Positions 9,655 through 20,993 of a stretch of 64,000 nucleotides of DNA are shown piece by piece. Under the pieces are notes generated by a model, which was not told the DNA's origin, ran no database searches, and saw only the letters and a program-made list of their open reading frames with translations. The DNA lies in contig OY760142.1 of assembly GCA_963663225.1 (NCBI GenBank), positions 1,952,001 to 2,016,000 on the forward strand. The letters run 5' to 3'. Made by a program: the position numbers and the translations under genes. Each line of letters opens with the position of its first letter. Within the stretch, counting starts at the first letter, position 1. This DNA comes from Nitrospirota bacterium (GTDB taxonomy: Bacteria > Nitrospirota > UBA9217).

Positions 9655-10029
9655 ATGGTAACCATAGTAAAAAAACCGACCGTTCTTCAGGCAGAGGGCA
9701 ATAAGCCGAAGCAGATCGAGGAATTCATCGGAACGGTAAACTCGCGGACTTCAGCCCTGAGCGTGGCGCGCATGAAAAGCCCGGAAGGCTGGATTGAGCA
9801 GGGGCAGACCCCTGAATTCGATGAATATACTCTTGTGTTGCGCGGAATGCTCAGGGTCAGCACAAGGACCGGGACATACGAAGTCAGATCGGGAGAAGCC
9901 ATCATAGCTCCCCGCGGCGAGTGGGTCCAGTACAGTACGCCTTCTCCGGAGGGCGCCGAGTATATTGCCGTTTGCATGCCGGCTTTTTCCCCCGCACTAG
10001 CGCATCGCGATACGGAGCATCGCGCGTGA
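9655..10029 (+). CDS. Cupin domain protein (EutQ-like)
   Basis: Cupin pattern QTPEFDEYTLVLRG...GEAII.PRGEWVQYSTP. Confidence 0.82.
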   Translation: MVTIVKKPTVLQAEGNKPKQIEEFIGTVNSRTSALSVARMKSPEGWIEQGQTPEFDEYTLVLRGMLRVSTRTGTYEVRSGEAIIAPRGEWVQYSTPSPEGAEYIAVCMPAFSPALAHRDTEHRA

Positions 10030-10033
10030 GCAG

Positions 10034-11416
10034 TTACGTCTTTCTTTTCAACACTTCTCTTGCCGCAACTACTCCGGAGATGGAAGCCTGAATCAGTCCC
10101 CGCGACACGCCGGCGCCGTCTCCCACGGCAAAAAGATTGTTCACTTCCGTCTCCAGGGAGGGCGTGAGTTTAAGCTTTGTGGAGTAAAACTTGACTTCCA
10201 CGCAGTAGAGCAGGGTGTCTCCTGAATTCACGCCCGGTGCGACATTGTCGAGCGCTTCGAGCATTTCCATAATATTGTGCAGATGCCGGTAGGGAAGTGC
10301 GAAACTGATATCGCCGGGGGTGGCATCGTCAAGCGACGGCCGCACCGATCCGTCCGCAATCCGCTCCGGCGTCGAGCGCCTTCCCATCTTCAGGTCGCCA
10401 AGCCGCTGCACAATCACTCCGCCTCCCAGAAGCTGGGCAAGGCCGGCAATATATTTGCCGTAGGATATGGGATCGTTGAACGGCTTGGTAAAGTCCGTGC
10501 TCACCAGCAGCGCAAAGTTGGTGTTCTCCGTTTTGCGGTTTTTGTAGCTGTGGCCGTTCACGCTGTAAATGCCCTCGCTGTATTCCTTTACCACTTCTCC
10601 GTACGGGTTCATGCAGAATGTGCGCACCCTGTCGCTGAACCGCTTGGTCGTGTAAATAAACTTGCCCTCATACGCCACATCAGTAATATCCGTCATAATG
10701 CGCGCCGGAAGTTCCACCCGGACGCCGATGTCCACCGGGTTTTTCTGGAGCGAAAGCTTCAGTCGTTTTGCCTCTTCAGAAAGCCACGTTGAACCCTCCC
10801 TGCCCGCCGCCGCTATCACGATGGGCGCGGAGAATTTTCGTCCGTCCAGCGTTATGACTCCGGTGACGGCACCGTTGTCGTGCGTGACGTGCTGCACCGG
10901 CATGCTGAAGAGCATGTCGATCCGTCCTTCAAGATAGCCCCGGATGTTCCGCAAAACCTCCTTGCAAAGGTCCGTACCAATATGTCGGATACGCGCTGGT
11001 ATGAGATGGAGATCGTAACCGGCGGATTTTTTCTTGAGACGCGCAAATGCGTCATCGTCTTCTCCGTGGATTGCACCGTATACGCCGAATGAGCAGTAAA
11101 TGGAATCCACGTAGTCAATGAAAATCGTCAGATCTTCAACTGAAAGATAGTCGCGCAGCCATCCCCCGAATTCGGAAGTGAGGGTGAGTTTCCCGTCGCT
11201 GTATGCGCCGGCTCCTCCCCAGCCGCATAGGATGCTGCATTGATCGCATTGTGCGCAGGGAGTTTCGGATTCGACCATAGGACACGCCCGGGTCTGGATA
11301 TCACCGCCTTTTTCTATCATGAGAATACTGAGGTTTGAATTTTTAACGAGTTCAAGAGCGGCGAAAATTCCGGACGGTCCGGAACCGATTATAATGACAT
11401 CATAGGCTGTTTTCAC
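10034..11416 (-). CDS. NAD(P)/FAD-dependent oxidoreductase (COG2509-like) with an N-terminal Cys cluster
   Basis: GSGPSG Rossmann motif, CP-x7-C-x2-C-x2-C, GGAGAYSDGK and C-terminal GDGAG. GTG start with an AGGAG RBS. Confidence 0.87.
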   Translation of the reverse strand: MKTAYDVIIIGSGPSGIFAALELVKNSNLSILMIEKGGDIQTRACPMVESETPCAQCDQCSILCGWGGAGAYSDGKLTLTSEFGGWLRDYLSVEDLTIFIDYVDSIYCSFGVYGAIHGEDDDAFARLKKKSAGYDLHLIPARIRHIGTDLCKEVLRNIRGYLEGRIDMLFSMPVQHVTHDNGAVTGVITLDGRKFSAPIVIAAAGREGSTWLSEEAKRLKLSLQKNPVDIGVRVELPARIMTDITDVAYEGKFIYTTKRFSDRVRTFCMNPYGEVVKEYSEGIYSVNGHSYKNRKTENTNFALLVSTDFTKPFNDPISYGKYIAGLAQLLGGGVIVQRLGDLKMGRRSTPERIADGSVRPSLDDATPGDISFALPYRHLHNIMEMLEALDNVAPGVNSGDTLLYCVEVKFYSTKLKLTPSLETEVNNLFAVGDGAGVSRGLIQASISGVVAAREVLKRKT

Positions 11417-11612
11417 GGAGAACTCCTTCCCATTCGTGCAGAATAGAGTAATGCGGGTACGCCTGGTAGCCGGATGATCGTAACATTAATCTGATAACCG
11501 AACGGGCATCGTGCTGACGAGGAATTTTGGAGCCAGGGCTGTAGCACGGTTCAGGCAGGAAAGAGCAGAATCCTCCGCCTGCCTATAATTCTTTAGGTTT
11601 AGTATTGTTTTA

Positions 11613-11640
11613 AGTGTATCTCACTGACGGCAATAGTCAA
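11613..11640 (-). promoter_or_regulatory. Candidate sigma70 promoter for the FAD oxidoreductase
   Basis: TTGACT-16 nt-TACACT on the minus strand. Confidence 0.45.
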
Positions 11641-11780
11641 GGATAAAGCAATAGAAAACAGCACCGTGACAACTTTGTACGCTATACTATTCAATAAGAA
11701 TAAACACGAAGATTGTAATTATTAAATGACGGAGAGGTTGCTGCGGAAGAGGAGTTCTATCCAACGAAAGGAGGGACGTT

Positions 11781-12965
11781 ATGAAACGGGTGTACCTAGT
11801 GTTATTCATTATGATTGCTGGTTTGTCCTGTTTTCTGGTCAATACAGCCCAATCAGAAGTCATGAAGGCAGTGTCAAAAAGCGATTATGTGGGGTCCATA
11901 ACATGCCAGAAATGCCATAAAATTCCTTCCGACACATGGAAACTTACCTATCACAGCAAACTCATTGGAAAACAGGACCAGCGGCTGCTGAAGGATGCGG
12001 CTGAAAAATGGGAAACAGACGGTTTTAACCCCGGTCCAACGAAAGGCAATGCAACAGGCAAGAAGTTTACGAGAACCGATGTGAAGTTCACAATCGGCTC
12101 AAAATGGAAGCAGCGATATCTGGTTTCGAATGAAGAAACCGGCGGCTATCAGTTCCTTGACAAGCAGTTCAACCGGATGTCGGGAAAATGGGAAAATTAC
12201 GGTCAGAAGAACGACTGGAACACCACCTGCGCAACCTGCCATACGACCGGATACCGCATTACCGAGTATGATACCGCTAGTCCAAAGACCCAGAAGACGT
12301 CATGGGTTGAAACGAGCATAGGGTGCGAGGCGTGCCATGGCCCCGGGGCGAAACATGTAAAAACAGGATCGAAAAAAGACATCTGGAATTTTGCCGGCAA
12401 GTCACCAGCTGAACAGTCCCGCGTGTGCGGGTACTGCCATATTCGTCTTGAGAACGACATGTACAAGACGGCCCAGGGGAACCCCCGGGAAGATTTTCCC
12501 GCACCAAAGGTTGGTGGAAGTTTCAAACCGTCGGATGACTGGACCACATGGTATCCTGAACAGGTGATCATTCCGGGGGTGCAGCCCGGAAATCCTTTTG
12601 ATAAGGAGTATACCGGCGACCTCAAGGGGCTTTTCATCGTGGACGAAATTTCAAAAAAGAACGGGGTATATGAAGAGGCAAAACACCATCAGGAATACCA
12701 GGGGTTCATCCAGTCGAAGCACTACAAGAGCGCGGGGATGGGGTGTCTTTCCTGCCATTCCCCTCACGCGACCAAGAAAAAACCGATGGTTGAGGCGTCA
12801 AACAGCTGTACGGCCTGCCACGATGCTTCATATACCGTGGACAAATACATGCCCGGCCTCGGCAAGACCGCTGATAATCTTTTCGTGAGATCCCATACGT
12901 TTATCAAGGACCAGCAGCGGAAAGGCCTGCCGACATATCAAGGTATACCTGTGTTCTACAAATAG
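11781..12965 (+). CDS. Periplasmic multiheme (6 CxxCH) c-type cytochrome
   Basis: Signal peptide. CQKCH, CATCH, CEACH, CGYCH, CLSCH, CTACH. GGAGG RBS. Confidence 0.92.
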   Translation: MKRVYLVLFIMIAGLSCFLVNTAQSEVMKAVSKSDYVGSITCQKCHKIPSDTWKLTYHSKLIGKQDQRLLKDAAEKWETDGFNPGPTKGNATGKKFTRTDVKFTIGSKWKQRYLVSNEETGGYQFLDKQFNRMSGKWENYGQKNDWNTTCATCHTTGYRITEYDTASPKTQKTSWVETSIGCEACHGPGAKHVKTGSKKDIWNFAGKSPAEQSRVCGYCHIRLENDMYKTAQGNPREDFPAPKVGGSFKPSDDWTTWYPEQVIIPGVQPGNPFDKEYTGDLKGLFIVDEISKKNGVYEEAKHHQEYQGFIQSKHYKSAGMGCLSCHSPHATKKKPMVEASNSCTACHDASYTVDKYMPGLGKTADNLFVRSHTFIKDQQRKGLPTYQGIPVFYK

Positions 12966-13012
12966 CCTGAAGCAGGGAATACCGGAAACATATGCGGTGA
13001 ATACATATTGCC

Positions 13013-13046
13013 GGGGAGTGAAACAATCGTCATCGTTTCACTCCCC
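13013..13046 (+). terminator. Stem-loop after the cytochrome gene (probable terminator)
   Basis: 12-bp perfect inverted repeat GGGGAGTGAAAC/GTTTCACTCCCC. The U-tract is weak. Confidence 0.6.
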
Positions 13047-13175
13047 TATTAGAACGAAACCTCACTTGCTATCCATAATTTCCTGTGGTATCTTCTAACT
13101 ATCCATCCTGGGAAACAAGCACCCAACATCAGTCTCTTTCTTAATGATAACAATACACTTCAACGGTTTTCAGAC

Positions 13176-13217
13176 AGCAAGATTTTACAAGACAACAATC
13201 TGATTTGTTTCTATAAT
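13176..13217 (+). promoter_or_regulatory. Candidate AraC-type activator site and -10 box
   Basis: AGCAAGATTTTACAAGAC (CAAGA direct repeat, 10-bp period) overlaps the -35 position. TATAAT at 13212-13217. Confidence 0.45.
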
Positions 13218-13412
13218 TTCAACAGTATTATCGGCATCGGAAGCAGCAAAAAGAGCCGCCTGCATGCTTTTGTGCAGAATGTCGCTCTCTGTTTGTTTGT
13301 ACGCATTTTTTGCCGGCCGAGCACGTGCATACCCCGAAAGAAGCATTTTGCCTCATTGTGCCGCCTGCCCTTCTCGTTTTGATTTTGCGGTTTTCTTGAG
13401 GAGTGTGATGTT

Positions 13413-14366
13413 ATGAGTTCAATACAAAATGTTTGCAGGAAGAGAAAAACAAGCTTTCCAGAAGAGGCTCTTCGCGAGATTATGCCTGCGAACTGGCAGG
13501 ACAGGGATATATCGTATGAACAACCGAACGATCAGTGCATGAAACTGATTCAGGCAAAAGACATCACAAATTATTTTTCGAAGCATGTTCACGAAAAACT
13601 GTATATCGGGATTATTCAAAAGGGCGTACGGCGGATGCGATACCGGGGCTCTTCCGCGGATCTTAGCCCTGGGCAGATATTCCTTCTGAATGTCGACGAG
13701 CCGCACGAATGTGATGACGATGATCTCAATTTGCAGATTATCGGTTTTCCGGAACGCATTTTTTTGCAAATAGCCCGTGAGATCAACCTCAAATCCGCTC
13801 CGCAAACAATATCTTTTAGCAAATTAGTTGCCACTGACCGGTTTCTTTTTTCAGAAATAACATCATTATTATCACTTCTTGACTCCAATGCATCACGACT
13901 TACAGTCGAGTCGAAAATTAACGGCATTCTGTCCCGGCTTGTCATGCGACATACGACCTGGAGCGAGACCCTGCCCGAAAAAACGCTGTCGTTCACGGCA
14001 TCTGTGCGCCTGGCGAAAGAATACGTCCAGGAGAACTACGCTCGCGAGATATCGCTCGGTGATCTTGCTCAACTCACCGGGTTGACACCGTACCATCTCA
14101 GCAGGATTTTCACCGCCACGTATGGCATGTCACCGCATCAATATTTAACACACGTCCGCGTAGAAGCCGCCAAAAAACTCCTTACAAATCTGGACACGAC
14201 GCTGTCCGATGTGGCCCTGAACGCAGGATTTTATGATCACAGCCATTTCTGCAGGACGTTCAAGCGGTATACGGGAAGCACACCGCGGGAATTCGTTGAG
14301 CAGCATAAAGCAGGGAGCATTCCTGTTACGATGAGAGAAACTCGAAAAGTGCCTGCGACGCGATAA
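13413..14366 (+). CDS. AraC family transcriptional regulator
   Basis: Cupin-type ligand domain (KHVHE, EPHEC) and tandem HTH (LSRIF...GMSPHQY, GFYDHSHFCRTFKRYTGSTP). Confidence 0.93.
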   Translation: MSSIQNVCRKRKTSFPEEALREIMPANWQDRDISYEQPNDQCMKLIQAKDITNYFSKHVHEKLYIGIIQKGVRRMRYRGSSADLSPGQIFLLNVDEPHECDDDDLNLQIIGFPERIFLQIAREINLKSAPQTISFSKLVATDRFLFSEITSLLSLLDSNASRLTVESKINGILSRLVMRHTTWSETLPEKTLSFTASVRLAKEYVQENYAREISLGDLAQLTGLTPYHLSRIFTATYGMSPHQYLTHVRVEAAKKLLTNLDTTLSDVALNAGFYDHSHFCRTFKRYTGSTPREFVEQHKAGSIPVTMRETRKVPATR

Positions 14367-14425
14367 TAACGATATTTCGGGAGCAGCATGCTGGCTGGTG
14401 TGCGACAGGAGGGGAAAAGTCCTAT

Positions 14426-15307
14426 ATGGAGGTCGGAGAAGACAAGATAGTCGAAACAATTGGCCTTGTAAATCATGTGTGGCTGGCCACGCTGGCCGAC
14501 GAACAAGCAAAAAAACAAATAGGCCTGAATCATGTAAGCCATATGTGGGACCAGGACCGACCCTACTGGTACCTCTGGTTTGATGGCTGTCCCGGAGTTT
14601 ATAAAATGGAACTCCAGGGGTCAAAATCCGCAAAAGGCTATGATTGGCTGGCGGCGTTTTCCCTCAAGTATTATCCCGCAGAAACAGAATCGTCCTTTGA
14701 TAACCTCTCAACGCTTGAAAAACTTTGCAGAACCAGCGATATGTTCCACTCCCTTCCGTCGTACGGGGTCTGTGATTGCCCTTGCCAGGGACTGCATCCC
14801 GGCCATGGCCATAAAATTCACTCGTCAAAAAATACGGGTGCACCCGATATTGCCTTTCATGACGTCATACCTGCCGGTTTTTTTTATACCGGTGACGTGC
14901 AGATCGCATTTAACGAGCGGTCCGGCAGTGTGATTCGTTTGGAAAGCCAGACAAGCTGGAAAACAATCATGCAGAGTGATTTTACGCTGCGTGATGACGC
15001 AGGCGGCACCCTCGCGGAACTTAAAAAGGGGCAGGCGGATAAGGATTATCCAGGATTTACTATCTCCCAGTTGTTGTACCGGAGGCTGGTTGCAAGCTGG
15101 TCACGCATCCATCAGTACACAGTTGAAAGTAAATCCGTGCGGGAATTAGAAGGAACAGTGTTTCTGTCAGATGGCTATACAGCCGCACCTATGCCATCCG
15201 CTGATGTGAAACGGACCATAATCCAGTCTGAATTGCGCCGCAATCCATCGGACAGACTGGACCCGCTTCCTTGGGATGACCACCATCTGATGGAAAAAAT
15301 AGTCTGA
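14426..15307 (+). CDS. Hypothetical protein with a Cys/His-rich segment
   Basis: 293-aa ORF with an AGGAGGG RBS, co-oriented with its neighbours. Contains CDCPCQGLHPGHGHKIH. Confidence 0.75.
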   Translation: MEVGEDKIVETIGLVNHVWLATLADEQAKKQIGLNHVSHMWDQDRPYWYLWFDGCPGVYKMELQGSKSAKGYDWLAAFSLKYYPAETESSFDNLSTLEKLCRTSDMFHSLPSYGVCDCPCQGLHPGHGHKIHSSKNTGAPDIAFHDVIPAGFFYTGDVQIAFNERSGSVIRLESQTSWKTIMQSDFTLRDDAGGTLAELKKGQADKDYPGFTISQLLYRRLVASWSRIHQYTVESKSVRELEGTVFLSDGYTAAPMPSADVKRTIIQSELRRNPSDRLDPLPWDDHHLMEKIV

Positions 15308-15432
15308 CAGAACGCGAGGAGCGTCAAATTTTAGAATAAAACGCTGAAGCTGAAATGGTCTCGGTTGCGGAGGCGAGATAGAGGGATAGAGACAAAGGAA
15401 ATATGCCAGATTAATCGAAAGGAGGTGATAGC

Positions 15433-15753
15433 ATGAGGAAACGTCATGCCGTTGTACTCGCCGTATGCGCATGCATGCTTCTTTCAGTTTTTAGTATTGC
15501 ATATGGATATTCAGAAAACGACATAACCGTCAAGGCAACGGTTTATGGTGCAGCCTGGAACGCAACCGGAGATGTGACGAGCGTATCCCTGCTCACCGTC
15601 GAAGGTGATGAATTGTTTGTGGTGCATAATGCAGTCGGAGATGAGCTTTTAAAACAAGTTGATCAGAATATCAAGGCAAACGGGGCGGTGCTTGTTGATA
15701 AGCAGGGTCGAAAAAATATAACCATCTACAAATATGAAATTTTGTTCAACTGA
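15433..15753 (+). CDS. Small secreted beta-rich protein (possible OB-fold), copy 1
   Basis: AGGAGGTG RBS, Sec-type signal peptide ending AYG, close paralog at 16972. Confidence 0.85.
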   Translation: MRKRHAVVLAVCACMLLSVFSIAYGYSENDITVKATVYGAAWNATGDVTSVSLLTVEGDELFVVHNAVGDELLKQVDQNIKANGAVLVDKQGRKNITIYKYEILFN

Positions 15754-15789
15754 TAAGACAGTAAAAACGCGGAAATTTAAGGAGGGCTT

Positions 15790-16854
15790 ATGGAACGAAG
15801 AGATTTTCTGAAAGCGATGGCCGCATCCGGAGCGGCACTCGCGGCTACAGGACTGGGCGTGGACGGGAAGAATGCCTGGGCCGATGCAAAGCGTGAAGAT
15901 ATCGGAATGTGCAAATCGGTGAAAGTCACCTGCGTTTCGGAAACAAGCTGGTTCGATTCACCGCGGATGCTCCAGGACATCAAGGACGCGGGCGGCGCCA
16001 TGGTCTCGCACTATGAAATACCGTGGACCCAGAGCAATCTTGGCGGTTATGTGGCGCTTATAGAAGTCGAACAGCTTGACGGCACGAAGCACATTATCCA
16101 GCTGGATACCGGCTGGAGTGTAGCCTGGACCGATTATGTCCTTGAGAAGTCGGGCCTGTCCAGCCTGCTCCAGAAGAAGAAAGTAGATGTCCTGGTCATG
16201 AGCCATGAACATGAAGACCATTTCTTTGGGCTTACGTCAACCCTTAAACGGTATGACAAAATTCCGATGGTCATTCCGAACACGTTCTATCCGGAAGGGA
16301 AGTTGATGCTAGCCGGCAAGTACAAAAACGACAAGTCGAAAGCTTCAAATAATATTCCGCACAGAGGAGAACTCGTCGAGGTGAGCGGCAGCAAGCTTTA
16401 TAAGATGTATCCCGGCGTAGCGGTCAAAATGTTTGATATTCCGATTATGCTCAGAACGCGCGGAGAGCAGGCTCTTATCTTCAACATCAAAGACAAGGGA
16501 GTCGCTACCGTGACCGGCTGCTGCCACATGGGCATTATGAATCTCGTAAACTATGCCGCCAGAAATATTGAAGGATACAAGCCGTATGGAAGTTACGGCG
16601 GGTTCCATATCGCGGCATTCGAAAACTGGGATCCCAAGTTTGACGACATCATCCACGGGCTGAAAAAAATGAACCTTACAAAGCTCGGTTGCAACCATTG
16701 CACGGGATGGGTATGGGCCCAGCGCGCGCGCGAATTGGGTCTTCCCATCGTGTTAGGCACACAGAAATACAAGGAATACAAGAGATTGCCGACCACCGGG
16801 CCGGGGGCCAAGGAAAACGTGTATCTCAGAAACGGAGACGTTATTGTTTTCTAG
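15790..16854 (+). CDS. Tat-exported metallo-beta-lactamase-fold hydrolase (COG1237-like), copy 1
   Basis: Twin-arginine ERRDFLK, DTG, SHEHEDH (HxHxDH), TGCCH, GGFH, NHCTG. Confidence 0.88.
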   Translation: MERRDFLKAMAASGAALAATGLGVDGKNAWADAKREDIGMCKSVKVTCVSETSWFDSPRMLQDIKDAGGAMVSHYEIPWTQSNLGGYVALIEVEQLDGTKHIIQLDTGWSVAWTDYVLEKSGLSSLLQKKKVDVLVMSHEHEDHFFGLTSTLKRYDKIPMVIPNTFYPEGKLMLAGKYKNDKSKASNNIPHRGELVEVSGSKLYKMYPGVAVKMFDIPIMLRTRGEQALIFNIKDKGVATVTGCCHMGIMNLVNYAARNIEGYKPYGSYGGFHIAAFENWDPKFDDIIHGLKKMNLTKLGCNHCTGWVWAQRARELGLPIVLGTQKYKEYKRLPTTGPGAKENVYLRNGDVIVF

Positions 16855-16971
16855 TCTGTCAGGGAATGGGCGATCAACCCCGCTGCATAGTTACAGGCGG
16901 GACAAATGCCGGTCAATATGGTCTCGTGTCATACTGTGCACAATAACACCTGAATGGTAAAGGAGGTTAAA

Positions 16972-17295
16972 ATGCGACAAAAGCGGAACTCGGCAATGAT
17001 GGTGCTGGCTGTCTGCATGTTGTTGTCCCTCTTCACCAGTGCTTATGGATATTCTGAAAATGATATTACCGTAAAAGCATCGGTTTATGGTGCAGCTTGG
17101 AACGAAAAAGGAGAAGTAACTGAAGTATCTCTTCTCACCACGGACGGGGATGAACTTTTTGTTGTGCATAACCCTGTCGGCGACGAGCTTTTGAAGCTGG
17201 TCGAGCAGAACATCAAAGTAAACGGCGCCGTTACCCTTGATAAACAAGGGAGGAAAAACATAACGATTTACAAATACGAGATCAGTTTCAACTGA
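16972..17295 (+). CDS. Small secreted beta-rich protein (possible OB-fold), copy 2
   Basis: AGGAGG RBS at 16961. Mature part is 67/81 identical to copy 1 (manual count). Confidence 0.85.
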   Translation: MRQKRNSAMMVLAVCMLLSLFTSAYGYSENDITVKASVYGAAWNEKGEVTEVSLLTTDGDELFVVHNPVGDELLKLVEQNIKVNGAVTLDKQGRKNITIYKYEISFN

Positions 17296-17331
17296 GCGGC
17301 TGTTTGCACAAACTGCGGGAAGGAGGAACAT

Positions 17332-18402
17332 ATGGATCGTAGAGATTTTTTGAAGACACTGGCTGCATCCGGAGCTTCCCTTGCGGCCACGGAGTTGGGA
17401 ATGGGCGGCAGCGCGAAGCAAGCCTGGGCTGTTGGGAAAAAAGAAGATATCGGGCAATGCAAATCGGTCAAAGTAACCTGTGTTTCCGAAACCGCCTGGT
17501 TTGATTCTGCAAGAATGCTTCAGGATATTAAGGATACCGGCGGCGCCATGGTCTCCAGTTATGCCCACCCCTGGACACAAAGCAACATTGGAGGATACAG
17601 CGCCCTTATCGAGGTGGAACAGCTTGACGGTTCAAAACACACCATTCTCATGGACACCAACTGGACCCAGGAATGGTGCGACTATGTGTTCCAGAAATCC
17701 GGGGTGGATGCCCTGCTGCAGAAAAAGAAAATCGACATCATGGTGATTACCCATGAGCACCATGATCATTACTGGGGCATAAAGTCTACGTTGAAAAGAT
17801 GGCAGAACATACCGCTGGTCATTCCCAATACGTTTTATCCGGAAGGGAAAGCGCTGCTGGAAGGCAAATATAAAAACGACATCGCCAAAGTGGAAAATAA
17901 TATTCCGCATACGGGCGAACGCATCGTACTGGGGCCCGACAAACTCCTGAAACTCTACCCCGGCGTTGCGGTCAAGATGTTTGATTTGCCGATTATGAAC
18001 AGGGTGCGCGGCGAGCAAAACCTCTACTTCAACGTACAAGGCAAGGGAATCGTGGCGGTGACCGGATGCTGCCATGCAGGCATCCTTAACCTGATGCATT
18101 GGGCCGTGCGCAATATCGAGGGAGCAAAGCCGTATGGTTCCTACGGCGGGATGCATATCGCAGCATTTGAAAACTGGGACCCGAAGTTTGACGATATCAT
18201 TTTCGGCTTGAAAAAAATGAACATGACGAAAATCGGATGCAATCACTGCAGCGGTTGGGTTTGGGCAACACGCGCACGGGAGCTGGGACTGCCGATTGTC
18301 CTCGGTTCGCAAAAATACACGCAATATAAGAGAGTGCCCACTACAGGGCCGGGAGCAAAGGAAAATGTCTACCTCCGCAACGGAGACGTGGTCGTTTTCT
18401 AA
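17332..18402 (+). CDS. Tat-exported metallo-beta-lactamase-fold hydrolase (COG1237-like), copy 2
   Basis: DRRDFLK, THEHHDH, TGCCH, GGMH, NHCSG. Collinear with copy 1. Confidence 0.88.
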   Translation: MDRRDFLKTLAASGASLAATELGMGGSAKQAWAVGKKEDIGQCKSVKVTCVSETAWFDSARMLQDIKDTGGAMVSSYAHPWTQSNIGGYSALIEVEQLDGSKHTILMDTNWTQEWCDYVFQKSGVDALLQKKKIDIMVITHEHHDHYWGIKSTLKRWQNIPLVIPNTFYPEGKALLEGKYKNDIAKVENNIPHTGERIVLGPDKLLKLYPGVAVKMFDLPIMNRVRGEQNLYFNVQGKGIVAVTGCCHAGILNLMHWAVRNIEGAKPYGSYGGMHIAAFENWDPKFDDIIFGLKKMNMTKIGCNHCSGWVWATRARELGLPIVLGSQKYTQYKRVPTTGPGAKENVYLRNGDVVVF

Positions 18403-18438
18403 CAGGCACTGAATACGGCACGAGGAGGTCATTGCACT

Positions 18439-19689
18439 ATGGCTATTAATTCAGCGGAAGCAACAGGGCTCAGCGAGAAAAAAGCAGGAGCCATCTTGCC
18501 GCAACCACTGGGGGGCTTGTTGAACCTTGCCTTACTGCTTTTACTGTCCGAAGCAATATGGTATGGACTCTTTTCTCCGGCAGGCCCGGTAAGTCTTTAC
18601 ACGCCCAATGTCGGGCTTGCCCTTGTTATTACCATTCTCATGGTTATACACTGGGGTGTTGATGTGTTCGATTTCTGGCCGTTCAGCAGAAGTTTTATCC
18701 GTGAGGGAAATCCGATCATTAAGGGTATAATTCTTCTCGCGGTGTATGTTGGGGCTGCAATCGTGGTCATGTTCGGCATATATTACAACGTTGTCGGACG
18801 CTTCGGCCCGGTGTTTTTCAGCGGCCCCCAGCTGATTGTGAGCGGCGGATTGGGACAATATTCGCAGACTGCAATCGAGAATGGCTGCTACGCACAGATT
18901 ATGATGAACACCTGCATTATTTTCTTCACGATCCTGTGGGTAAGAAGTTTCAACTTCTCACCATGGCAGCAGAACACTTCGGTGGTCAAATCGTTTTCAG
19001 CCTGGCTTATGGGGATGTTCCTTGCGATTCTTGCCTTCTCGGTGCTTTTCTATCCCCATATCGCGTATCAGTTCTATCCTCCCCAGATATTTATGGCAGC
19101 ACAGCCGTGGTGGTCCGATTGGGCCATGACCCAAAGCAGCTTGTTCCATTTCGGCTGGATTGTGCCTGCACTCGTCCTTCTTTACTGGACGAAGATGCTG
19201 TGGGAAGACCGGCCTTTTTCCCTCATTAAGTCCGTATGGCTAAGGGGAGCCGTTATGATGATTTCAGTCATTGCGGGCGGAATACTCATCATGTTCGCCG
19301 CAAACTCGATCATGAATTGGTATTTCGGAGGGGAAGCGTTCCTGGGAGGAAACACCACGGAGCAGCCGGCATGGAGATGGAACCATGTTGCGGAAATGGC
19401 CATGTTCATGCAGACGGCCGCTGTCATCTTGTATTACTATTTTGACAACTGGCCTTCGAAATTAAGCTTGCCGGTGCGGGCCGTGGTCAGAACTGCAATT
19501 GCGGTTGTGGGTGGCTTGATCATTGCCAAGCTGTACTATCTTCTGGGACCTACGTTTCTCGGAACCGTTCAGGGAATAGGCCAGGACAACGATACAAGCC
19601 TCTGCTGGACTGTCATGGTGCTGATCCTGATTGTTGCGCATGGAGAATTTTTTGATGGTTTCCCGTTTAAGAAGCGAGCAGTAAAATAA
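18439..19689 (+). CDS. Polytopic integral membrane protein, putative transporter of unassigned family
   Basis: About 10-11 hydrophobic segments, Trp/Pro-rich repeated loop motif, GAGGAGG RBS. Confidence 0.8.
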   Translation: MAINSAEATGLSEKKAGAILPQPLGGLLNLALLLLLSEAIWYGLFSPAGPVSLYTPNVGLALVITILMVIHWGVDVFDFWPFSRSFIREGNPIIKGIILLAVYVGAAIVVMFGIYYNVVGRFGPVFFSGPQLIVSGGLGQYSQTAIENGCYAQIMMNTCIIFFTILWVRSFNFSPWQQNTSVVKSFSAWLMGMFLAILAFSVLFYPHIAYQFYPPQIFMAAQPWWSDWAMTQSSLFHFGWIVPALVLLYWTKMLWEDRPFSLIKSVWLRGAVMMISVIAGGILIMFAANSIMNWYFGGEAFLGGNTTEQPAWRWNHVAEMAMFMQTAAVILYYYFDNWPSKLSLPVRAVVRTAIAVVGGLIIAKLYYLLGPTFLGTVQGIGQDNDTSLCWTVMVLILIVAHGEFFDGFPFKKRAVK

Positions 19690-19700
19690 TCATAATTTGC

Positions 19701-19738
19701 GACCGTTCCGGCCATTTGGCCGGAACGGTCAGATTTTT
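19701..19738 (+). terminator. Rho-independent terminator-like hairpin
   Basis: GACCGTTCCGGCC/GGCCGGAACGGTC 13-bp stem followed by AGATTTTT. Confidence 0.7.
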
Positions 19739-19792
19739 AGGTAAGAAAAGCTTCATACGGGAGATATAGGAAGTAAATCTAGGAGCGTTAAT

Positions 19793-20095
19793 ATGGAATT
19801 ACCAGACAGATCTTTTTTAACAGGCATTATTCGTGAAATAGCGCAGGTCACAGCTGCATTTAAAGAAAGCTATGCCGAAGTCCAAGATGAAATGAAGCAG
19901 ATTATAGACTTTGAGGATCTTCCCATAGCATCCACATATCCCCGGGAGCTTTTCGAGGAAGAAGCCAAGAGACTGGGGATCGACATTGATGCGGTCGGTG
20001 AGCAGGAGGCGATCAAGCAAATTGTGATGCTCCAGTTTGAGCGGGAGAAGGGAAAAACCGGTATGCAGCTTGATGAAGAAAAGTCCAGGACGTGA
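19793..20095 (+). CDS. Hypothetical acidic protein (100 aa)
   Basis: AGGAG RBS and plausible helical composition. Confidence 0.65.
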   Translation: MELPDRSFLTGIIREIAQVTAAFKESYAEVQDEMKQIIDFEDLPIASTYPRELFEEEAKRLGIDIDAVGEQEAIKQIVMLQFEREKGKTGMQLDEEKSRT

Positions 20096-20142
20096 CCGGT
20101 GCGGGCTTGTCTTCGCTTGCAGAATACAATATCAGCGGTTTC

Positions 20143-20790
20143 TTATATGACCAGTAACTCACGCTCGCCACTAAGGTATTTGCGGGCCAGGAGAAGGATT
20201 CTCAGATAGTAATTGTCGAGACAGGAAACGAAATCAGAACTTGATGCCCGCAATGGTTCGGCAGGGGAACCCTCTCCCCGAAAGAACATTCCGGTAACAT
20301 GCGGCTCTTTTCCCGAGAACAGCCTGATTCCGGAATCGATATCCAGCACGAACACACCATCAACCTCTTCCTTTTGCAAGATCAAATCCTGTACATTCAG
20401 CGGATAGGGCAGCAAAAAAACATCTTGGAATTCATATTCGCGTACTCCGGGCGTGAAACCGTATACACACACTCTTGGTCCAACGGGGACAAGCTGTTCA
20501 AACCGTACGTCGAGACCCAGTTCTTCCCGGATTTCACGGAGGCCTGCCGTTCGTGCTTCCTCTCCTGATACATAATGCCCGCCCACGCTCACATCAAGTT
20601 TTCCCGGGGCGACTTTTTTTTCGGATGAACGCCTCTGAAAAAGTGCCGTGGCAACACCGTTTTGCCGGTAGATGATCAGGCAGTGAAAGGCTCCGTGCCA
20701 GGCGCCCGTTCTGTGCGCTTCATCGCGCGTGATAACCCGGCCGGTTTTTTTGCCGGTGTCGTCCAGTAGGTCGAAATATTCAGGAGCCAT
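20143..20790 (-). CDS. NUDIX hydrolase (isopentenyl-diphosphate isomerase-like)
   Basis: AHRTGAWH, FQRRS..K...PG..DVSVGGH, GE-x6-REIREELG Nudix box. Start moved to ATG 20790 (GAGG RBS). Confidence 0.88.
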   Translation of the reverse strand: MAPEYFDLLDDTGKKTGRVITRDEAHRTGAWHGAFHCLIIYRQNGVATALFQRRSSEKKVAPGKLDVSVGGHYVSGEEARTAGLREIREELGLDVRFEQLVPVGPRVCVYGFTPGVREYEFQDVFLLPYPLNVQDLILQKEEVDGVFVLDIDSGIRLFSGKEPHVTGMFFRGEGSPAEPLRASSSDFVSCLDNYYLRILLLARKYLSGERELLVI

Positions 20791-20917
20791 ACGCTGTTCC
20801 TCGGTGTTTTTTTTTATCTGGTTCCATTCCTTAGGAGAAGCTGTTTGACCGCCCAAGATCGTGTTACGATTTCCGCATGTGTAAAATACAGCGGTTTTGC
20901 CGGGTGACGCGTGCAAT

Positions 20918-20993
20918 AAAAAAAGCCACCAAGACATGCGCTGGGGCATACAGAACAGGCAGGGGGGCGTATGCCAGCGCTTCCTCGTGGCTT
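20918..20993 (-). terminator. Long interrupted hairpin plus U7 tract downstream of ihfB
   Basis: AGCCAC..GCGCTGGCATAC-loop-GTATG..CCAGCGC..GTGGCT followed by T7 on the minus strand. Confidence 0.6.

Follow-up and report, generated by a model that had tools for sequence, protein, structure and literature searches.

What does a compact island of genes in a Nitrospirota genome do, and which of its genes belong together? The island lies in a 64,000-nucleotide stretch of contig OY760142.1 (assembly GCA_963663225.1, positions 1,952,001 to 2,016,000; this whole stretch is called the window below). An earlier sequence-only reading had described nine co-oriented genes there, and all nine open reading frames (ORFs) are indeed present on the + strand at the expected coordinates (Table 1). 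They encode a hexahaem c-type cytochrome, an AraC-family regulator, a Cys/His-rich protein of 293 amino acids (aa; p293), two pairs of a small secreted protein (sm1, sm2) and a metallo-beta-lactamase-fold protein (MBL; mbl1, mbl2) carrying a twin-arginine translocation (Tat) signal, a polytopic membrane protein (memb), and a 100-aa protein (p100). That reading had taken the nine genes as a single system. We found that the conserved unit is smaller and consists of four proteins: MBL, memb, p293, and p100. Our tentative proposal, which we regard as a serious possibility, is that these form a conserved and previously undescribed module under a local AraC regulator, in which a metallated MBL would be exported by Tat and convert a substrate in the periplasm, and memb would take up the product.

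The four-protein core emerged from a search seeded with an MBL alignment at one genome per species, which returned 381 confirmed relatives. The best 80 loci were kept and scanned with hidden Markov models built from our own alignments, gene calls in these loci being simple ORF picks. The memb gene is adjacent to the MBL gene in 66 of the 73 loci that extend at least 1400 nt downstream. Among the 58 well-flanked loci (at least 3200 nt downstream and at least 1500 nt upstream), memb is encoded in 52, p293 in 51, and p100 in 47, and 47 loci encode all three. In the other direction, a search that started from memb found a memb-like gene (E<=1e-20) in 35 of 401 Desulfobacterota genomes; 24 of these carry memb of the strong type, and the MBL gene adjoins it in 24/24 loci. 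The sequence-only reading had staked itself on co-localisation in other genomes, and because the components do co-localise across many genomes, the objection it had foreseen fails. Seven loci with room for memb lack it, and four of them (L065, L072, L074, L078) have MBLs without an RR signal.

Judged by record titles, carriers include Desulfobacterota, Nitrospiraceae, Anaeromyxobacter, Rhodoferax, Phascolarctobacterium, Succiniclasticum, and Clostridia bins, and loci in which the four proteins co-occur span Desulfobacterota, Nitrospirota, Myxococcota, and Negativicutes. Protein records name cultured carriers as well, namely Desulfomicrobium apsheronum, Desulfosarcina alkanivorans, and Limisalsivibrio acetivorans. 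The gene order is MBL-memb-p100-p293 in Desulfobacterota, p100-p293-MBL-memb in Negativicutes, and (p100)-memb-MBL in a type-2 variant, of which 8 of 11 loci were extended and examined; the set stays together across all three orders. We found no characterised pathway of this composition in protein families, PDB profiles, or the literature, in keeping with the sequence-only reading. Literature on COG1237, on Tat-exported MBLs, and on COG0523 combined with twin-arginine export yielded no description of such a module, and a preprint in which an MBL gene comes up in connection with Tat regards it as an unrelated neighbour. The composition and three of the protein families are undescribed; the design itself is a familiar one, in which an exported metalloenzyme comes with dedicated chaperones and a partner in the membrane. 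The module is widespread among anaerobes (Desulfobacterota, Nitrospirota, Anaeromyxobacter, and gut and rumen Negativicutes) yet unnamed in databases, and all of its core proteins except the MBL are without a relative in Pfam, NCBIfam, or the PDB.

In the window, the module sits in an insertion, as the sequence-only reading had supposed. G015, a same-genus genome that is 100% complete and without a memb homologue, has the contiguous order S1-SppA-IHF-NUDIX-FAD, with 126 nt between the NUDIX and FAD genes versus 8.7 kb in the window. Mobile-element borders were sought, and no flanking direct or inverted repeats were found at the island borders. Genes of the memb type occur in 4 of 301 sampled genomes of the phylum, the window's own included, a rarity that fits horizontal acquisition.

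The hexahaem cytochrome proved separable from the rest. It has several CxxCH motifs behind an export signal and matches the multihaem families Cytochrome_C7, c3_2, and C554 in Pfam; a homologue of this type occurs in only 1 of the 80 related loci, the near-identical L004. A 49-kb contig from X5-run DNA, ~98% identical to the window, covers positions 11400-11658 and 13057-20300. The letters between them, 11659-13056, are replaced by 46 others, and the cytochrome gene and most of the hairpin that follows it are gone. Since the contig skips only this segment, a close strain keeps the whole island minus the cytochrome gene, and because that strain lacks the cytochrome alone, the hexahaem cytochrome is a separately acquired cassette outside the conserved module. 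The sequence-only reading had allowed that it might be independent.

Table 1. Features of the island and its flanks, in coordinates of the window, and places of the memb paralogues in other loci.
Feature	Position	Strand	Remarks
Inserted island	11417..20142	.	between FAD-dependent gene and NUDIX gene; 8.7 kb
FAD-dependent gene	10034-11416	-	island flank
Hexahaem c-type cytochrome, 394 aa	11781..12965	+	six CxxCH; lipoprotein-like signal ending …AGLSC
Hairpin 3' of cytochrome gene	13013..13046	+	15-nt arms, 93% complementary, 4-nt loop
AraC-family regulator	13413..14366	+	cupin ligand domain and two helix-turn-helix (HTH) domains
p293, 293-aa cytoplasmic Cys/His-rich protein	14426..15307	+	CDCPC...HPGHGH patch; putative client-specific metallochaperone or adaptor
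sm1, small Sec-exported beta-rich protein	15433..15753	+	mbl1 partner; signal peptide visible in sequence
mbl1, Tat-exported COG1237-type MBL-fold protein, copy 1	15790..16854	+	Lactamase_B and TAT_signal
sm2, sm1 paralogue	16954..17295	+	mbl2 partner; signal peptide; 74% identical to sm1
mbl2, Tat-exported COG1237-type MBL-fold protein, copy 2	17332..18402	+	Pfam and NCBIfam matches
memb, 416 aa, inner-membrane protein with 10 transmembrane helices	18439..19689	+	putative permease; no Pfam/NCBIfam family
Intrinsic-terminator-like hairpin after memb	19701..19730	+	13-bp stem, 10 GC pairs, T-rich tail
p100, 100-aa small cytoplasmic protein	19793..20095	+	RRxFF N-terminal peptide degenerated to DRSFL
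NUDIX gene	20143-20949	-	other island flank
memb paralogue family	L115-L126, e.g. L115:6648-7967, L120:7129-8496, L123:6826-8142		

Both enzymes of the window belong to the MBL superfamily (Pfam Lactamase_B at 24.7 bits for mbl1 and 27.5 bits for mbl2, cut-off 22.7) and both are Tat substrates, having an RRDFLK signal, a hydrophobic stretch, and an AWA cleavage site (TIGR01409 scores of 20.6 and 19.9, cut-off 16.7). Ten residues are invariant in 83/83 homologues (H141, H143, D145, H146, E228, C246, H248, H275, H305, and C306), and these residues, the HxHxDH motif and the downstream His and Cys, also occur in two generic cytoplasmic COG1237 neighbours. The closest solved proteins are the COG1237-type 2P4Z, 7DCK, and 3H3E (TM1679), none of which has a stated function (PDB profile matches: 2p4z 2.7e-17, 7dck 1.6e-14). 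They share the subfamily and the HxHxDH, GC.H, GG.H, and HC.G motifs with the window MBLs. The solved proteins are ~250-285 aa long, and their chain lengths and alignment starts suggest that they have no signal peptide, whereas the window MBLs have a Tat signal, ~70 extra N-terminal residues, and the family-specific C247, N304, and W309/W311.

Three other identities for the MBL were set aside. Many homologues bear the automatic name 7,8-dihydropterin-6-yl-methyl-4-(beta-D-ribofuranosyl)aminobenzene 5'-phosphate synthase, which denotes a cytoplasmic enzyme of methanopterin biosynthesis; the name misfits because these MBLs carry Tat export signals and are encoded with a membrane protein and putative chaperones in bacteria. 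A four-Cys Fe-S cluster was dropped since C247 (79/83 homologues) and C303 (76/83) are not invariant, which makes such a site unlikely. A split ComEC-like DNA-uptake machine (an OB-like protein, a membrane protein, and an MBL) was dropped as well: the matches to TIGR00361 were generic MBL-motif matches only (E~3e-5), and Pfam gave no Competence domain in memb.

The sequence-only reading had described a duplicated pair of small protein and Tat-exported MBL. Two such units are present, but recent tandem duplication does not hold: the units are only 70-74% identical at the DNA level, mbl1 and mbl2 are 73% identical, and in a tree from a quick IQ-TREE maximum-likelihood run with SH-aLRT support only they fall into different well-supported subclades of one 29-row clade. 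Because of this placement, we read the two MBL copies as old paralogues or separate acquisitions. The sm family, which matches no Pfam or NCBIfam entry even at permissive thresholds, is encoded directly upstream of the MBL in 9/80 loci, which belong to the window's clade. Across the loci, the position upstream of the MBL holds one of three things: an sm protein, a monohaem cytochrome c of ~110 aa, or neither. The monohaem cytochrome c is found in 25/80 loci, usually directly upstream of the MBL and in four Desulfuromonadales-type loci downstream of p293; it never shares a locus with an sm protein.

The cytoplasmic proteins p293 and p100 look like a pair dedicated to the MBL as their client, inserting its metal and escorting it. 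By itself p293 is an orphan, with no Pfam or NCBIfam match even at permissive thresholds and 0 matches among PDB profiles, and it has homologues in 483 cluster representatives (E<=1e-3) of a library of 1.84 billion proteins. Its structural model is confident (predicted local distance difference test, pLDDT, 88.2); Foldseek returned nothing for it, and the top matches of the VIA fold search were SRPBCC/Bet v 1-like at Z<=5.7. A PP2C lead from atlas clusters (score 0.92) was dropped, with only 137 features in common and no backing from the fold lists. The most telling feature of the sequence is a patch of Cys and His residues that moves within the protein. A CxC/CC patch is found in 52/60 stand-alone homologues (an exact CxCC in 10), at the C-terminus in 38/60 and mid-protein in 14/60, and the pattern used detected none in 8/60. 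The mid-protein form occurs in the window (CDCPC…HPGHGH) and in Firmicutes (CPCC with His runs), and the extreme C-terminal form of Desulfobacterota is mostly CGC followed by H, S, or T.

In 7/8 type-2 loci, the gene after the MBL encodes a ~600-aa fusion of a p293-like domain, which spans the first ~290 residues (E 1.8e-28 to 2.5e-8 with the p293 profile), to a COG0523 GTPase. The GTPase part matches Pfam cobW (E~1e-36), with CobW_C in 6/7 and with Walker A and CVCC motifs. The p293 part of the fusions has no Cys/His patch of its own in 6/7; L129 retains a single CC pair. The window p293 has no cobW match in Pfam and is therefore not itself a COG0523 G3E GTPase, but since its domain is fused to true COG0523 proteins in these loci, p293 probably works with or like a COG0523 protein. 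The sequence-only reading had called it a Cys/His-rich unknown; its presence and its lack of a family stand, and it is now best read as a metallochaperone-like maturation factor.

The partner family, p100, is ~95 aa long and begins with RRxFF, after which there is no hydrophobic stretch; permissive thresholds brought up no Pfam or NCBIfam family for it. Chaperones are known to use vestigial RR peptides as handles. Natural fusions with p100 at the N-terminus of p293 occur in three of the best 150 p293 representatives (P0293, P0294, and P0358). Fusion to a COG0523 GTPase and to each other is why we read p293 and p100 as putative cytoplasmic metal-loading factors rather than catabolic enzymes. 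The sequence-only reading had left the 100-aa ORF outside the system, behind a terminator; its presence in 47/58 well-flanked loci makes it a core member.

Passages of a 2024 review describe CxCC as the high-affinity metal site of COG0523 chaperones and indicate that few clients of bacterial COG0523 metallochaperones are known (PMC11672702). Dedicated clients described there include Fe-type nitrile hydratase for Nha3 and METAP1 for ZNG1 (PMC11672702). The likeness to the window lies in an enzyme-specific CxCC-type factor that is encoded beside one metalloenzyme or fused to an adaptor for it. The window differs on several counts: p293 lacks a GTPase domain and falls into no family, the metal patch shifts about as an insert or tail, Tat exports the putative client, and p100 joins the set as another small protein. 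The adaptor domain, fused to COG0523 in 7/8 type-2 loci and encoded beside a single Tat-exported MBL, thus offers a concrete and testable chaperone-client pair. TorA/TorD, DmsA/DmsD, and NapA/NapD are Tat-exported cofactor enzymes matured in the cytoplasm by dedicated proteins from the same locus. The window may resemble them in having putative dedicated cytoplasmic maturation proteins that act before Tat export; it differs in that the cofactor would be a simple metal site, not molybdopterin or Fe-S, and p293 and p100, which have no Pfam or NCBIfam match, lie outside the TorD/DmsD/NarJ family.

The remaining core protein, memb, was modelled with AlphaFold2 from 25 homologues as ten long helices (pLDDT 85.5, pTM 0.88). 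Lys and Arg are confined to the N-terminal tail, alternate loops, and the C-terminal tail, which by the positive-inside rule places both termini in the cytoplasm. The conserved residues (Y54-T55-P56, E147, P206-H207, Q216, P223-W224-W225, T231, R313, H316, and Y366-Y367) lie almost all on the opposite, K/R-poor periplasmic side, and the PWW stretch is invariant. No Pfam family matched memb even at E<=5, including the AA_permease-type, FTR1, and metal-permease families; its sequence profile had 0 matches among PDB chains at E<=10; and against 5.8 billion proteins the profile had 127 matches, all from its own family and all without Pfam domains. Foldseek found nothing in the PDB at E<=1e-3 for the model, and in the VIA search (all-against-representatives) a helical barrel designed de novo ranked first (Z 9.1), natural proteins reaching Z<=5.7. 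Foldseek, where run on memb and p293 as the sequence-only reading had suggested for its unknowns, thus gave no relative. No relatives were found for the modelled fold of either protein, and we do not claim that either fold is new.

Some memb homologues are labelled "AAT family amino acid transporter" (APC), an automatic name unsupported by Pfam, and no LeuT-fold chain is among the Foldseek or VIA matches listed. Together with the dihydropterin synthase name of the MBLs, this corrects two misleading automatic annotations. A WWD-like, haem-handling reading of the PWW loop and its flanking His residues has no support from the fold lists and is kept as a remark only. Two homologues have one in-frame stop each (L051:11082-12332, and a TAG in L086, G674:C390:27093-28331); these could be pseudogenes, sequencing errors, or recoding.

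A hint to the function of memb comes from distant full-length paralogues in the Desulfobacterota sample (~430-455 aa, 110-163 bits, no Pfam match), which retain W41, P56, P223, W225, H316, and Y367. None of their 12 places has an MBL nearby, and in 8 of the 10 places scanned they stand beside genes for an AMP-binding acyl-CoA synthetase, a CoA-transferase, a thiolase, or methylmalonyl-CoA mutase. The paralogues are probably an undescribed family of organic-acid transporters in Desulfobacterota. It is mainly because such neighbours are typical of carboxylate uptake genes that we read memb as a putative permease, so that the permease of the sequence-only reading gains indirect support. Together, memb and the paralogues beside acyl-CoA synthetases make up a superfamily without a solved relative, probably of new transporters.

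The proposed mechanism starts in the cytoplasm, where the MBL, present in the window as two diverged copies, would be made and its His/Asp/Cys metal site loaded with the help of p293, which would supply the mobile CxCC/CGC-His metal-binding patch, and of the small RRxFF protein p100. Tat would then export the folded holo-MBL. In the periplasm, the enzyme, each copy working with its small Sec-exported partner, would convert a small substrate, most likely by hydrolysis of an ester, lactone, or phosphoester-type bond, and memb, encoded immediately downstream, would take up the product, probably a carboxylate. In the window's lineage, induction would be provided by AraC.

Several observations weigh against this mechanism. 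The name hydrolase comes solely from the fold family, MBL folds also house redox enzymes, and no substrate, metal, or activity is on record for any close MBL relative. The permease role is taken from the neighbours of the paralogues and not from memb itself, in which the conserved His, Glu, Arg, and Tyr facing the periplasm could just as well make up a site for catalysis or for a cofactor. A purely hydrolytic model leaves the monohaem cytochrome c of 25/80 loci unexplained, and the ExbB-ExbD-TonB genes that flank some modules (see below) point to acquisition of a scarce nutrient or metal and not to simple catabolism. The window's own p100 follows a strong terminator and retains only one of its two arginines. 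Most of the loci come from metagenome bins, and some neighbourhoods are incomplete. A complex prediction for memb and the mature MBL gave a median score of 0.17 against a mark of 0.32 and was used as evidence neither way.

The cytochromes and the memb residues could instead belong to a periplasmic redox module, an explanation that we consider unlikely but worth weighing. Here, the MBL would be an oxidoreductase with a chaperone-inserted metal centre, and electrons would be exchanged with the small cytochrome c or, where there is none, with quinones through memb as a quinol-interacting anchor. MBL folds do host redox centres, for example in flavodiiron proteins, and Tat export combined with dedicated metal insertion is typical of periplasmic redox enzymes. 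The monohaem cytochrome c lies on the same strand as the module and inside it, at two positions; its best NCBIfam match, SorB, is the cytochrome subunit of a Tat-exported sulfite dehydrogenase, though the match is far below the cut-off (E 5e-4, 20 bits versus 93). The window adds a hexahaem cytochrome, and at their periplasmic ends the memb helices bear conserved His, Glu, Arg, and Tyr that would suit this role. SorAB, a Tat-exported enzyme with a small monohaem cytochrome c, resembles these loci in this pairing; it differs in that its enzyme is a molybdoenzyme and not an MBL fold, and in the window's clade a non-haem, beta-rich protein occupies the cytochrome's position. The cytochrome is moreover absent from all 17 Bacillota-clade loci, Negativicutes among them, and from many Desulfobacterales loci, and the multihaem cytochrome of the window is dispensable in the sister strain. 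The variable C247 and C303 speak against a four-Cys Fe-S site, memb is without an invariant intramembrane His pair for haem b, and its paralogues stand in a catabolic, CoA-activation context.

A more specific version, which we think distinctly unlikely, would make the module a new periplasmic metalloenzyme system. In it, a thiolate-containing MBL metal centre (possibly Ni, Co, or Fe, and not necessarily Zn) would be built by the p293 class of chaperones, alone or fused to COG0523, and the enzyme, an oxidoreductase or a reductive hydrolase acting on a small molecule, would be wired to the monohaem cytochrome c and to a membrane subunit of a new superfamily. If this were true, the pair would join a handful of bacterial COG0523 client pairs besides CobW and Nha3, and the activity would be a new respiratory or detoxifying one of anaerobes.

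Acquisition of a metal or metallophore, which we judge quite improbable, was considered in light of Ton genes. ExbB-ExbD-TonB genes follow the module in 7/80 type-1 loci, all from Acidaminococcaceae, and in 3/8 type-2 Desulfobacterota loci, two very distant lineages. A TonB-dependent receptor encoded elsewhere would bring in the chelate, the MBL would open the chelator, the cytochrome, where present, would reduce the metal, memb would import the ion, and p293/COG0523 would receive it. The soft-metal motifs of p293 (CPCC with a His-rich stretch, and CGCH) and its COG0523 fusion fit this, as do the periplasm-facing conserved His and Glu of memb and the Rrf2 regulators nearby in Negativicutes. 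The window stretch occurs in sequencing runs whose metagenome labels read anaerobic digester, sludge, biofilm, or bioreactor, and sulfide keeps trace metals scarce in anaerobic digester-type habitats. Yet the loci examined showed no TonB-dependent receptor, Fur/Zur/NikR-type regulator, or binding protein, and the regulators present are of organic-substrate types. A metal-preloaded, Tat-exported protein would be an odd uptake component, the memb paralogues go with CoA ligases and not with metal genes, and memb matches no metal-permease family in Pfam.

Two known systems bear on this comparison. EfeUOB iron uptake combines a Tat-exported enzyme (EfeB), a small periplasmic partner (EfeO), and a polytopic permease (EfeU), an architecture that the window shares; the two are unrelated in sequence and fold, memb matches neither FTR1 nor any other Pfam family, and EfeUOB is not known to have cytoplasmic chaperones. 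In Sphingobium, a Tat-exported organophosphate hydrolase with an amidohydrolase TIM barrel reportedly works with the Ton complex, a link reminiscent of the Ton genes beside the module in 10 loci. The fold is a different one and the window has no Ton genes next to the island, and we know of no dedicated permease or chaperone set for the Sphingobium enzyme. Among the core proteins, only the MBL belongs to any of the families against which they were compared.

Very improbable, finally, is an envelope-modifying pair, in which memb would be an enzyme with a periplasmic His/Arg/Glu active site, O-antigen ligase-like or MBOAT-like, and the MBL would process what memb uses or makes on an envelope lipid or glycan. 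In its favour, the residues conserved in memb lie nearly all in periplasmic loops or at helix ends (including the invariant PWW and H316), and the paralogues often stand beside AMP-binding enzymes, which also fit acyl-transfer systems such as DltA/DltB, but no WaaL, MBOAT, or GT-C similarity was found among the fold matches listed or in Pfam, the distribution is patchy and accessory (4/301 genomes of the phylum), the regulators are of substrate type, and the neighbours of the paralogues are catabolic (CoA-transferases, thiolase, methylmalonyl-CoA mutase).

The uptake module that we favour would be regulated differently from lineage to lineage. The AraC protein of the window is a member of the AraC/XylS family (Pfam HTH_18 2.2e-24, HTH_AraC 4.2e-22, AraC_binding 1.7e-14) and is the local regulator of the module, which it may control. 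Among the 80 loci, a homologue at the same position occurs only in L004 and L005; upstream positions elsewhere hold substrate-type regulators, with at least five families represented in all (AraC, sigma54-PAS, GntR-FCD, TetR, and Rrf2). The sequence-only reading had envisaged an AraC-inducible system, of which the regulator remains and AraC as a fixed part does not. The hairpin after the cytochrome gene (13013-13046) is followed by no T-run. No RNA run is listed for the window stretch; two runs labelled RNA-Seq are probably DNA, one of them a duplicate of a DNA run. Small cupin-domain proteins are encoded near the AraC/module region at window positions 9655-10029, where the gene lies beyond the FAD gene and outside the island, and at L005:8279-8671 in a 74%-related Nitrospiraceae locus; none was seen in other clades.

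In Negativicutes loci, a TatA-like protein (recognised by eye in the alignment) and TatC (by Pfam) are encoded directly after memb. Because these genes lie inside the locus, the MBL may be a main reason that Acidaminococcaceae keep Tat, and it may be a principal Tat client in Phascolarctobacterium and Succiniclasticum. In bins of these two genera, tatA-like and tatC genes directly follow the module (L066:12464-13680, L070:13100-13918, L083:13129-13998), and after them come a hybrid sensor kinase or response regulator and exbB-exbD-tonB.

The signal-less MBLs of L065 (~9932-10993), L072 (~9941-10993), and L074 (~421-1497) nest inside the Desulfomonile Tat clade of the tree, and the genes after them resemble NifS (cysteine desulfurase) and IscU/NifU, the N-termini being judged by eye. 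Generic cytoplasmic COG1237 MBL genes lie immediately upstream of the Tat-type MBL at L038:9461-10363 and L068:9064-9903. The generic gene of L068 adjoins genes that, by eye, resemble those of a MinD-like ATPase and a DUF59-like protein. This hints that COG1237 proteins may be linked more widely to metal-cluster biology.

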